A stretch of 63,696 nucleotides of DNA from an uncultured archaeon (GTDB taxonomy: Archaea; Iainarchaeota; Iainarchaeia; Iainarchaeales; VGJJ01): assembly GCA_964524375.1 (NCBI GenBank), contig CAZGES010000001.1:1-63696 (forward strand), in the 5' to 3' direction. Both the position numbers and the translations under genes were made by a program. The notes under the pieces were generated by a model. That model had not been told where the DNA came from. It did not search any database and was given only the letters and a program-made list of their open reading frames with translations. Shown here piece after piece: positions 8,005-11,001 of the stretch. Within the stretch, counting starts at the first letter, position 1; every line of letters begins with the position of its first letter.

Positions 8005-11001
8005 ATGACCACCACGCCCACGCTCACCCTCACCAAACTTCGAATGAAAAATTTCAAATCATTCAAGAACGCGAGCATTCCATTCGGAAAAGGATTCACC
8101 GCCATTGCGGGAGCAAATGGAAGCGGAAAGAGCAACATCATGGACGCACTCTTGTTTGCGCTGGGAGAAACGAGTTTGAAATCCATCCGCGCCTCACGAT
8201 TAACAGACTTGGTATACTCCGGAGCGCCCGCGGGAGAAAATTACGCCGTGGTCAACTTGACATTACAGGGAGCGCAGCACGCGTATGATATTTCACGCAC
8301 GATTGACAAGCAAGGAAAGTCCGTGTATCGTCTGAATGAGAAGCGAGTAACATTGAGTGAAGTGCAGAACTTGCTGCATGAATTAGGATTGCGCGTGGAC
8401 GGACACAATTTGGTTTCGCAGGGAGATTTGATGAGAATTATTGACATGAACCCCGTGGAAAGAAGGGAAATGATTGACGAAATTGCCGGGTTGCAAGAGT
8501 TTGAAGAAAAGAAAGGGGAAGCGATGAAAGACTTGGACAAAGTGGACCGCAAAATAAAAGATGTGACGATTGTCTTGAACGAACGGATGGCGATTATTGA
8601 ACAATTAGGAAAAGAACGCGATATTGCCACACGATTCAAAAAATTGGAAAAAGAATTGAAGGAAACGAAAGCCACTATTTTGCACACGGAAGCGCGCGAG
8701 TTGAATGCGAAACTGGAAGCCCTTGTCACCAAGCAAGTGGATTTGATTGGGAAGAAAGACGAAGCGCTGACAAAGCAGAAAGACGCTCAACTCATGCTGC
8801 AGGAAATGGAAAAAGAGTTCACGGAATTGGACCAAAAATTATTAGGAGTCAAATCGCAAGCGTACGAAGGATTAGGAAAAAGTGTGGAAGAGCATAAGGG
8901 AGAAATCCGCGTCACGGAAGAACGTATCTCGCATGCGAGCAAACGCATGGAAGAATTACAACGAAACTTGGAAGAAATTTTCCGCGTCATCGCGCATGCA
9001 AACGAGGGAATTGCCAAAACGGAAGCGGACTCCAAAGCGTTGCAGGAAAAGTTTACGGAAATTGAAGGGAAAATTTCCCCCCTGCGAAGCAAGCAGGCGG
9101 AATCATTGAAAAAGAAAGTGGAATTGCTCAACGAATCGCAGAAGGTAGAACAGGATGTTCACGCCGCGCGCGATGCGGTCACTCATACACGAGAGAAAAT
9201 TGCGCACGTGAATGCGAAAATGGAAAGCATTAGGCGTTCACACGAAATGGCGCAGTTAATGCATACGCGTTGGGAGTCTCAACTTGCGCGCATTCGAGAG
9301 GAAATGAGCATGTTGAAGAAGGATGTGGATGAGCTCGCCAAAATAAAGAAAAAATATCCGGATGTGGAGAGTGCGCGCGCGAAAATAACGAAGGAGATGC
9401 ACGCGATTGACCAGCATGTCGCGGAACACCATGGAAAAATTTTTGCACACACGGAAAGTTTGACCCAATTGGGAAAGACGAAGAGCCATTGCCCCGTGTG
9501 CGAGCGCGAGCTGAAAGAAGACCAGAAGAAAACCCTCGCGAAGCAAAAAAATGAAGCCATTGCGGATGCGAAGAAGCATACTGAAAAGTGGGAAGCGGAA
9601 AAGAAGAAACTGCATGAAGAATGGGAGGAATTGCACCACGCGGAAACATTACTCATACGGCTGGCGCGCAGCCAAAGCAAGATGCAGGAAGCTGAACAGC
9701 AGGAAAAAACGATTGTGAGCGAACTCGCGAAGATGCAGAAAAGCGAAAAAGGGGAAAGCAGCGAAGGGTTGCTGAGCGAAAAGCAGCAATTGGAAAAATT
9801 ATTGGTGGAAGAAAAGAAAACACTTGAAACGCTTGAAATGAAGCTCAGCAAACTCCGCGATGCGCTCAACCAAACGACAATGGACCAGACGCTCAACTCG
9901 TTAAACGAGGAAAAATCGCGCACGGAGAGGGAGTTGTTCCACTTCCGCACGCAGAAGAGCGTGCACGAGAATGCGATTGCCAATGCGCACGCGCGCACGA
10001 AGCAAATTAACGAGGAAGAGAAGCACATGAAAGACGTGTTGAAAGTCGAACAGAAGCGCCGCGACGAGCTGGCAAAAGTGTTGAAGAGTGCGGAAGCCGA
10101 ATATGAGAAAGCGATGAGCGCCAATCAAGTATTATTGCAGAAACGCGACCGCGTGCAGCAGAAAATTGTGGTTGAGCGCGAACGCGAGCGCGCGTGGCAG
10201 GAGAAATCATTCCGAATCGAGGGACAAGTTTCAGAAATTAAGATTGAACAGTCGAAGTATGATACGCGCTTGTTGGACGTCAAAGAAGAATTGAAGAATT
10301 TTGAGGGAGTGAAAACGTTTGATTCGCACGACACGATGGAATTGAAGAAACGTGTTCCCGTGATTGAACACGAGATGAGGCAATTGGGAACCGTCAACAT
10401 GAAAGCGCTGGAAGACTTTGGGCAGTATGAGAAGGACGTGTTGGAAATCAAGCAGAAGGCTGATACGTTAGACGTGGAACGATTGGCGGTGCTGGATTTG
10501 ATTAATTCGATTGACTCGAAACGCAATAATGCGTTCATGGAGACGTTTAACACGATTAATGAGAATTTCAACAAGATTTACACGGGGTTCTTTGACGGAA
10601 CGGCGCGACTTGAACTGACGGACCGCGCCAAACCATTGGAATCGGGACTGTTGATTGAAGCCAAACATGGGTTGGAGAAGAGTTTGAAGAACATTGACTC
10701 CATGTCGGGAGGAGAAAAGTCGCTTACTTCATTAGCGTTTATTTTTGCGATACAACTTTTCGAACCGGCACCCTTCTATTTCTTTGATGAAGTGGACGCG
10801 GCGTTGGACATGCATAATTCGCGCAAAATCGGAGCGTTGATTAAGGAGATGAGTAAATCGTCGCAATTCATTTCTATTACGCACAATGATAGTATTGTCA
10901 AAGTCGCCGACCAAATTGTGGGTGTGGCGAAGAGCAGCAGCAACAATTCTTCCGTAATTGGCCTGCGCGCCGCGCCGGAAGTGCAAATTACAACGGACTA
11001 G
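8005..11001 (+). CDS. smc: SMC-family ATPase with central CxxC zinc hook (no recognisable hinge)
   Basis: N-head FKSF..[41 protein letters not shown]. C-head [45 protein letters not shown]. Residues ~170-800 are K/E-rich coiled coil. CPVC at aa 496-499 of 998 (nt 9490-9501). Confidence 0.85.
   Translation: [998 protein letters not shown]

Follow-up and report, generated by a model that had tools for sequence, protein, structure and literature searches.

The hinge is treated as a defining domain of SMC (short for structural maintenance of chromosomes) ATPases, and the roles that have been assigned to it are dimerization, the binding and entry of DNA, and cross talk with the heads. In the Rad50 zinc hook (structure 1L8D), a zinc site shared by two chains is established. 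Here, we analyze a gene at positions 8005 to 11001 of the plus strand of contig CAZGES010000001.1 (assembly GCA_964524375.1), from an uncultured archaeon; the window, that is, the whole stretch of DNA that was analyzed, comprises positions 1 to 63,696 of this contig. The product, a protein of 998 residues, is probably a condensin-type SMC ATPase of the Iainarchaeia (Diapherotrites, DPANN) in which a Rad50-type zinc hook has taken the place of the hinge within the original gene, and which would act as a zinc-joined homodimer with a kleisin partner and a chromosomal role.

The closest precedents are engineered. In the Bacillus subtilis chimera Smc(Zh), the hinge is replaced by the zinc hook of Pyrococcus furiosus Rad50, and the strain grows normally on rich medium (Bürmann et al. 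2017, PMC5344682; reviewed in PMC7752040), which indicates that a design that joins an SMC to a zinc hook is viable. In the converse swap, the MukB hinge was put in place of the hook in fission yeast Rad50 (Tatebe et al. 2020, PMC6969161). Among natural proteins, hinge-less SMC variants have been described in marine Actinobacteria, and these are explicitly without CXXC (Sussfeld et al. 2025, PMC12153180). The members of the archaeal ASRP family (ClsN/coalescin and Sph1/Sph2) are also known as zinc hook proteins of the SMC superfamily, which dimerize by means of this motif and not of a hinge (PMC9389158, PMC9764264). In a full-text literature search, no published account turned up of a zinc hook in a natural SMC of the canonical type, which is not proof of absence. 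The hook SMCs described below have been public for years, and the one from archaeon GW2011_AR10 is annotated "chromosome segregation protein."

SMC-type head, neck, and joint

In the list of open reading frames (ORFs) and their translations, the SMC gene starts with ATG and encodes 998 residues plus a stop codon. All of its parts are given here on the plus strand. Residues 1 to 162 (positions 8005 to 8490) are the N-terminal half of an SMC head and contain the Walker A motif GANGSGKS (residues 36 to 43, nucleotides 8110 to 8133) and a Q-loop at Q139 ([20 protein letters not shown]); the SMC-style region reads QGDLMRII…[12 protein letters not shown]. Residues 864 to 998 (10594 to 10998) are the C-terminal head half, with the signature MSGGEK (residues 900 to 905, from nucleotide 10702), the Walker B/D-loop segment [12 protein letters not shown] (residues 924 to 935, nucleotides 10774 to 10809), and an H-loop that reads THN. 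Walker A, Q-loop, signature, Walker B, D-loop, and H-loop are thus all present, and they are invariant across 79 homologs. The N-terminal head half has a mean column information of 3.19 bits. The original prediction, a reading of the DNA made with no database searches, had placed a 998-residue ORF at 8005 to 11001 and had quoted motifs from both head halves, all of which we found as it described them.

Searches with protein family models and structures group this protein with SMC rather than with Rad50. Pfam SMC_N matches it at 4.5e-52, and in NCBIfam it scores 548 bits on SMC_prok_A and 448 bits on SMC_prok_B, compared with 120 bits on the best Rad50 model, 98 bits on ASRP, and 83 bits on RecN; no model of Rad50, RecN, MukB, or ASRP gives more than 120 bits. 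The cut-offs of the Rad50 equivalog models are 700 to 1087 bits, far above this best score of 120, and by these models the head is not of the Rad50 type. The best sequence matches in the PDB by phmmer are Pyrococcus SMC heads (5xei, 4e-96), whereas Rad50 heads begin at 6e-20; the Pyrococcus SMC head and joint structure 5xei aligns to residues 726 to 986. We also modeled the full-length protein with AlphaFold2 from a 79-sequence alignment (mean predicted local distance difference test score, pLDDT, of 79.6). Foldseek ranks SMC structures first for this model, with SMC heads at target TM scores (TMt) of 0.73 to 0.87; on 5xns (Pyrococcus SMC head with ScpA), the TMt is 0.85 and the root mean square deviation (rmsd) is 4.1 Å.

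Hidden Markov models (HMMs) of the canonical SMC head halves part the two classes of protein. The window protein scores 189 bits on the N-terminal model and 225 bits on the C-terminal model, while 84 hook-bearing Rad50-type proteins score at most 64 and 49 bits, respectively, and there are no intermediates. Eight of these 84 proteins were checked with NCBIfam and are Rad50, scoring 130 to 963 bits on Rad50 models and 50 to 115 bits on SMC_prok_A. Identity over the head is 48% to hinge-bearing sister SMCs versus 23% to Rad50. The HMM scores, the PDB matches, and the head trees described below agree with the claim of the original prediction that both head halves are SMC and not Rad50.

Segment-wise profiles of the family were then scored on 56 canonical SMCs and on the 84 Rad50s, and the values given are median bits. 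The profile of the neck (residues 163 to 233) scores 41.5 on canonical SMCs and 0.5 on Rad50s, and that of the joint/neck (777 to 863) scores 61.1 and 3.3. At the apex (487 to 508), the values are -2.3 on canonical SMCs and 18.7 on Rad50s. The head-proximal parts of the arm score 9.8 and 5.3 on the N-terminal side (241 to 357) and 20.0 and 9.2 on the C-terminal side (627 to 764). Judged by these profiles, the protein is a mosaic, SMC-like at the neck and joint and Rad50-like at the apex. The middle of the arm does not distinguish SMC from Rad50, and the junctions lie somewhere within about residues 375 to 620. This test of the distal arm segments is unbiased. Together with the shuffle test of the P. 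furiosus Rad50 sequence described below, it replaces an earlier comparison in which hook-flank profiles were set against the arms of Rad50 and SMC, and which we discount because its Rad50 set had been picked with the same profile. These data show that the head, neck, and joint are those of an SMC, and our confidence in the architecture of the protein and in its orthology to SMC is high.

Absence of the hinge

Pfam SMC_hinge (PF06470) has no match in the window protein at an E value of ≤1. An HMM of the hinge region was built from 16 canonical SMCs, and it detects all of the 60+ hinge-bearing SMCs tested, at 1e-40 to 1e-120; these include the short (~830 residues) SMCs of Aenigmatarchaeota and SMCs from Micrarchaeota, Woesearchaeota, haloarchaea, methanogens, and bacteria. 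With the same HMM, nothing is found at an E value of ≤10 in the window protein or in its 120 closest homologs. In the multiple alignment, ~17 residues stand where the nearest hinge-bearing relatives have the hinge. The original prediction had reported that it could find no hinge, and neither Pfam nor the dedicated HMM finds one.

The sister of the hook clade is a 1078-residue SMC from Candidatus Iainarchaeum archaeon CSSed10_239 (locus L015; PWLL01000074.1, match at 4001 to 7231). It has what appears to be a degenerate hinge remnant of about half length, no CxxC, and no match to the hinge HMM. L015 may represent hinge decay at an intermediate stage or in parallel.

Rad50-like sequence at the apex

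The sequence CPVC occupies residues 496 to 499 (nucleotides 9490 to 9501), which is a relative position of 0.497 in the 998 residues and is as close to the exact midpoint as had been claimed. It lies in an apical loop, [15 protein letters not shown] (residues 490 to 504, positions 9472 to 9516), in which C496 and C499 are the predicted zinc ligands, two per chain. They are the sole cysteines of the protein.

This motif is a property of the family. CPxC is found at a relative position of 0.47 to 0.50 in ~113 of the 120 closest homologs, down to ~35% identity, and in homologs that contain inteins its relative position is shifted accordingly. More than 110 Iainarchaeia homologs (clusters at 90% identity) have the same architecture. 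In an alignment of 79 sequences, down to ~33% identity, C496 and C499 never vary, 78 sequences have P497, and from position 195 to position 757 no residue other than the two hook cysteines is invariant. The apex region has ~2.8 bits per column, on par with the neck (2.9), while the surrounding arm has ~1.5. With both cysteines invariant in all 79 aligned homologs, the conservation of the CxxC apex is far beyond chance and points to strong selection, and the loss of the motif from orthologs, which the original prediction had named as a reason to abandon the idea of a hook, is not what the alignment contains.

The likeness to Rad50 extends beyond CxxC. The pattern L-x6-C-P-x-C-x3-L-x4-K/R has the same spacing in the hook SMCs and in Rad50 hooks. 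A profile of 124 residues around the apex matches the P. furiosus Rad50 hooks 1L8D (5.8e-17) and 6ZFF (5e-16) and human RAD50 5GOX (4e-4), whereas unrelated coiled coils reach ~1e-3 at best. When the apex segments are isolated, 31 of 32 family members match Rad50_zn_hook (PF04423), the best at 2.9e-7. The resemblance to the archaeal Rad50 hook that the original prediction had noted is real, with a pattern that goes beyond CxxC and with profile matches of ~1e-16 to 1L8D and 6ZFF. An AlphaFold2 model focused on the apex (pLDDT 90, predicted TM score 0.71) consists of a helix, a 15-residue loop, and a helix. When this model is compared with 350,542 PDB chains, the top four matches by fold are all Rad50 hooks, and it superimposes on 1L8D with a TMt of 0.78 to 0.80 and an rmsd of 2.6 to 3.1 Å. 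The Foldseek E values are weak (6.5e-3), which is expected for a very small fold.

Two groups of homologs depart from this pattern. One subclade (P0027, P0031, P0073, P0074, P0079, and P0110), with proteins of 919 to 928 residues, has neither a hinge nor CxxC. These proteins have continuous coiled coil at the midpoint, and their gene context is unchanged (locus L087 for P0073). The subclade nests inside the hook clade, which suggests secondary loss of the hook. Other homologs (P0063, P0099 from archaeon GW2011_AR10, P0121, P0095, and P0112) are 1198 to 1548 residues long through intein/LAGLIDADG homing-endonuclease insertions that match PF14528 and PF14890; in P0121, the insertion comes right after the Walker A lysine, between …GANASGK and C….

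Geometry of the arm

In the full-length AlphaFold2 model, the protein is helical from residue 163 to residue 863, apart from short breaks that are paired and a tip without helix at 490 to 504. The ascending strand of the arm (residues 163 to 489, positions 8491 to 9471) is made up of helices at 163 to 233 (the conserved neck helix), 241 to 357, 375 to 450, and 454 to 489. The descending strand (residues 505 to 863, positions 9517 to 10593) is made up of helices at 505 to 583, 587 to 622, 627 to 764, 777 to 794, and 800 to 863, with the joint/neck at 777 to 863. The coiled coil that the original prediction had placed at about residues 170 to 800 corresponds to these modeled helices, which fold back on themselves at 490 to 504. 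Strands of ~330 to 360 residues (~327 per strand was used in the calculation) give a predicted arm of ~48 nm, which is the canonical SMC length and which suggests that only the hinge was exchanged. Within the family, the distance from Walker A to CxxC (~450 residues) and the distance from CxxC to the signature (~400 residues) are both fixed.

There are also hook SMCs with a short arm (P0019 to P0022, P0080, and P0108; loci L003 and L004). They are 772 to 804 residues long, each strand is ~100 residues shorter, and CxxC is still at the tip. Arm shortening seems to be recurrent in DPANN archaea, since the hinge-bearing SMCs of Aenigmatarchaeota are likewise short (~830 residues).

Phylogenetic position and distribution

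Head trees were made by neighbor joining with simple distances and a Rad50 outgroup, and ASRP sequences were left out. The split between Rad50 and SMC has a bootstrap value of 100, with the hook family on the SMC side. The hook family, L015, the hinge-bearing SMC of an Iainarchaeum metagenome-assembled genome (MAG) (locus L011), and the likewise hinge-bearing L012 form a group with a bootstrap value of 92, and Micrarchaeota come next. An earlier head tree is concordant and joins the hook family to L015 with a bootstrap value of 70. In these trees, the hook family lies deep within archaeal SMC and not within Rad50/SbcC, the placement that, according to the original prediction, would have made the protein simply a divergent Rad50.

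The closest homologs are labeled Candidatus Diapherotrites or Iainarchaeum (DPANN archaea, kingdom Nanobdellati). In a scan of species-representative genomes, hook-type genes come, among the matches listed, only from Iainarchaeia-like MAGs (L005 to L010 and L014), and the listed matches also include hinge-bearing SMCs from many lineages. As judged from its sequences, the hook family is vertically distributed and strongly conserved.

Gene neighborhood

The gene just upstream of the SMC gene (7217 to 7987, plus strand) encodes a membrane protein of 256 residues with ~6 to 7 predicted transmembrane segments, and it ends 17 nucleotides before the SMC start. A membrane-protein gene is upstream in every hook-type locus with enough flanking sequence. 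In most of these loci, including the one without CxxC, it is just upstream and on the same strand, with gaps of 3 to 50 nucleotides; in L010 and L085, and in the hinge-bearing locus L011, it is ~2 kb upstream of the SMC gene. The two genes are possibly cotranscribed. Relatives of the membrane protein match PF10110 (GPDPase_memb), weakly in one locus and in another with no such mark. We considered whether this gene encodes a hidden kleisin and rejected the idea: the protein has 6 to 7 hydrophobic segments, its relatives match PF10110, and it has no match to the ScpA HMM. Three extra genes upstream in L085 were rejected as kleisin candidates as well, one because it is the membrane-protein homolog and the other two because each product has a single N-terminal hydrophobic segment, which is typical of secreted or membrane-anchored proteins.

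On the minus strand at 6731 to 7021 is the gene for ribosomal protein L44e (Pfam PF00935), which serves as a synteny marker. The order L44e (minus), membrane-protein gene (plus), SMC (plus) is common to the hook loci and to the hinge-bearing locus L011. The placement of the family in the head trees and the synteny with L011, taken together, suggest that the hinge was replaced within an orthologous gene and not in a separate paralog. The genes around the SMC gene have housekeeping functions (ribosomal proteins, GAN/RecJ, and Lon). The contig itself is archaeal, as it encodes both ribosomal protein L44e and a GAN/RecJ-type protein with DHH-CID.

No Mre11-type phosphoesterase was found by Pfam in the ten flanking genes between 4243 and 14810 or, from the rest of the window, in ten of its longest ORFs, a search that did not take in every small ORF. 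Pfam tables for seven related loci have no metallophosphoesterase (the Mre11/SbcD partner) within 8 to 10 kb. The remark in the original prediction that no mre11, scpA, or scpB gene is adjacent holds for Pfam, the ScpA HMM, and phmmer with ScpB, with not all small ORFs searched for Mre11.

Some other features of the neighborhood are worth recording. At 13908 to 22761, the window carries a complete bacterial-type methylerythritol phosphate/deoxyxylulose phosphate (MEP/DOXP) isoprenoid cluster on what is an archaeal contig, in the order ispE (minus), ispH (minus), dxr (plus), ispD (plus), a NUDIX/idi-like gene (plus), ispF (plus), dxs (plus), and ispG (plus). The normal route in archaea is the mevalonate one. 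All seven named MEP genes score above the curated cut-off in one NCBIfam model or more, and ispE- and ispH-type genes are found near the SMC gene in the related loci L001 and L003, the latter also with dxr. At 17 to 1555 (plus strand), cut by the start of the window, is the C-terminal part of a very large DUF87/HerA_C-like ATPase, which has 1049 to 1120 residues in relatives and is conserved in L001, L002, and L088, where it lies upstream of SMC by a few kilobases. Long antisense ORFs of up to 281 residues (for example, 9279 to 10124) overlap the SMC gene on the minus strand at 8241 to 10986. The SMC coding strand has an AT skew of 0.35 and is very purine rich, encoding K and E; since such a strand suppresses stop codons on the opposite strand, these antisense ORFs are most likely not genes.

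Discussion

We propose that each chain would fold back into an antiparallel coiled-coil arm, with the SMC head at one end and the L-x6-C-P-x-C-x3-L loop at the other. Two CPxC loops from two chains would share one Zn2+; because there are only two cysteines per chain, two chains would be needed for a tetrahedral zinc site. The constitutive homodimer joined in this way at the apex would take over the job that the hinge has in other SMCs, and ATP would drive the engagement and release of the two SMC heads. A partner that binds the head and neck (a kleisin) would be retained, as the strong conservation of the neck and joint suggests, and the complex would organize chromosomal DNA as Smc-ScpA(B) does. 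By analogy with Rad50, zinc binding and zinc-mediated dimerization at the apex are predicted with good confidence. A condensin-like function with a kleisin is proposed with moderate confidence.

Several results weigh against this interpretation. On the window protein, PF04423 scores 19.4 bits for the full length and 23.3 bits for the isolated segment, both below the cut-off of 24.3. The full-length protein is also below the curated equivalog cut-offs of the SMC models (548.3 against 729.4 for TIGR02169 and 448.5 against 567.35 for TIGR02168), a shortfall that is expected if the hinge is missing. The existence of the subclade without CxxC means that some descendants can do without the hook. The hook clade is monophyletic with a modest bootstrap value of 35 to 70 in neighbor-joining trees with simple distances. 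In the species-representative scan, no second SMC locus was found in 7 to 8 hook-carrying assemblies among the 600 pattern matches listed, which is a weak test. A search with the hinge domain of the L011 SMC, aimed at hinge-bearing SMCs on hook-SMC contigs, gave 49 word-sharing candidates, none of them with a score, and carries no weight on this point. Finally, neither the ScpA HMM nor phmmer with ScpB finds anything in any ORF of the 63.7-kb window, and no ScpA, ScpB, or other recognizable partner is present in 15 hook-type loci with flanks of 4 to 10 kb, while scpA directly follows smc in 33 of the canonical loci examined. A search with an Aenigmatarchaeota-type ScpA profile gave 120 best matches that are all Aenigmatarchaeota-type ScpA and carries no weight for Iainarchaeia. 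However, loci from Micrarchaeota and Woesearchaeota likewise have no linked ScpA, ScpB, or Mre11, so the lack of linkage may be a habit of DPANN archaea and not evidence of absence.

One alternative concerns only the origin of the apex. The CPxC loop could be convergent, the hinge having decayed to a short loop in which two cysteines were then fixed, rather than an acquired segment of a Rad50 hook. L015, with half a hinge and no CxxC, and the nested subclade with neither hinge nor CxxC fit such a history, since they suggest that remodeling of the apex is ongoing in this lineage. When the P. furiosus Rad50 sequence is scored on the apex profile, its C-side hook flank gives 7.6 bits, which is marginal next to a best shuffle of 10.2 and also fits convergence. 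In contrast, the loop alone gives 37.7 bits and the N-side flank 15.4 bits, compared with 0.9 ± 2.0 and a maximum of 8.6 for shuffles. The spacing L-x6-CPxC-x3-L-x4-K/R is identical in Rad50 hooks, and the 124-residue profile matches 1L8D at 6e-17 while other coiled coils remain at ~1e-3. On balance, we think that convergence is rather unlikely.

A bolder form of our own proposal is that the SMC of Iainarchaeia is a zinc-linked dimer with a Rad50-type hook apex that possibly works without a recognizable ScpA/ScpB kleisin, and that the CxxC-less subclade consists of SMCs without any apical dimerization module. We regard this as doubtful. If it were true, core SMC activity would require no hinge fold and, in some lineages, no apex that is closed covalently or by a metal, and a Rad50-style hook could bridge between SMC complexes, as has been proposed for Rad50, which would add a tethering mode to the motor.

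It is also improbable, in our judgment, that the hook protein is an extra, specialized SMC paralog, with a function in repair, defense, or plasmid handling, that exists beside a canonical hinge-bearing Smc-ScpA. Such a paralog would agree with the lack of a linked kleisin gene and with the hinge-bearing SMC of some Iainarchaeum-labeled organisms (L011). However, the hook gene shares its L44e/membrane-protein locus with the gene that bears a hinge in the sister lineage, it has housekeeping surroundings, and the family appears to be vertically distributed and strongly conserved. Moreover, the listed matches for the 7 to 8 hook assemblies contain no second SMC, even though SMCs as distant as those of cyanobacteria were retained.

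Membership in ASRP, the known zinc hook family of the SMC superfamily, is very improbable. Those proteins are archaeal, lack a hinge, and have a zinc hook motif (PMC9389158, PMC9764264), and the window protein does have a weak match to their model, NF045487. However, this match is 97.8 bits against a cut-off of 300, ordinary Rad50s score 76 to 199 bits on the same model, and a zinc hook is not diagnostic of ASRP since it is also present in Rad50. The model has 593 positions and ClsN is 68 kDa, compared with 998 residues and a full-length SMC arm here. The head, neck, and joint resemble those of canonical SMC, and the family nests among hinge-bearing archaeal SMCs in the trees, which were made without ASRP sequences.

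The last alternative, a divergent Rad50/SbcC repair ATPase whose SMC-like head motifs are superficial, could account for the Rad50-like hook sequence, the missing hinge, and the ~120 bits on Rad50 models, but it is already contradicted by the reciprocal scores (548 on SMC_prok_A versus 120 on Rad50, with true Rad50s showing the reverse), by the head HMMs and the split with a bootstrap value of 100 that leave the family inside SMC, by neck and joint profiles that score ~0 to 3 bits on Rad50, and by the lack of a linked Mre11-like gene, and we give it next to no credence.

If the hinge has indeed given way to a hook in the SMC gene of these archaea, then the exchange arose in evolution and has persisted throughout a whole class of archaea, with the heads, neck, and joint left intact and the arm at its native length. 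This would be natural and independent evidence that what is essential about the hinge is stable dimerization at the apex and not anything particular to its fold. The relatives lend themselves to comparison (a sister with a hinge, a remnant of half a hinge, the hook, the short-arm hook, and proteins with neither hinge nor hook), and models of loop extrusion and of DNA entrapment could be tested on this series. There is a practical consequence as well. Hook SMCs do not reach the curated SMC cut-off and often carry no annotation beyond "AAA family ATPase" or "hypothetical protein," so that in DPANN genomes SMC can be under-called.

With the canonical SMC of Smc-ScpA(B) (TIGR02169; Pyrococcus 5xei, 5xns, and 4i99), this protein shares the head motifs, neck, joint, head-proximal arm, and arm length. 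It nests phylogenetically among archaeal SMCs and occupies the same locus as the gene of the hinge-bearing sister lineage. It differs from canonical SMC in having a 15-residue CPxC loop instead of the PF06470 hinge, in its score below the equivalog cut-off, and in having no adjacent scpA. With the hook of Rad50/SbcC (PF04423; 1L8D, 6ZFF, and 5GOX), it shares the motif, its spacing, the predicted fold, two cysteines per chain, and the position at the midpoint of the arm. In contrast to Rad50/SbcC, its head, neck, and joint are not of the Rad50 kind, it has no linked Mre11, and its arm is longer than in the archaeal Rad50s of 750 to 910 residues that we recovered. Like ASRP (ClsN/coalescin and Sph1/Sph2; NF045487), it is an archaeal member of the SMC superfamily with a zinc hook motif instead of a hinge (PMC9389158, PMC9764264), but the ASRPs are a separate family of ~600 residues, and the window protein, with 98 bits where 300 are required, groups with canonical SMC. 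The variants of marine Actinobacteria have lost the hinge too, but they are bacterial and resemble the hook-less subclade (P0027/P0073 type), not the window protein. Smc(Zh) has the same combination of an SMC head and arm with a Rad50-type hook as its dimerization module. Unlike that chimera, the hook SMCs, known here from their sequences, are natural, ancient, and family-wide in archaea, and they have natural short-arm and hook-less derivatives. The window protein is thus the natural counterpart of a swap that has so far been known from engineered proteins, an ordinary SMC except for its dimerization module.

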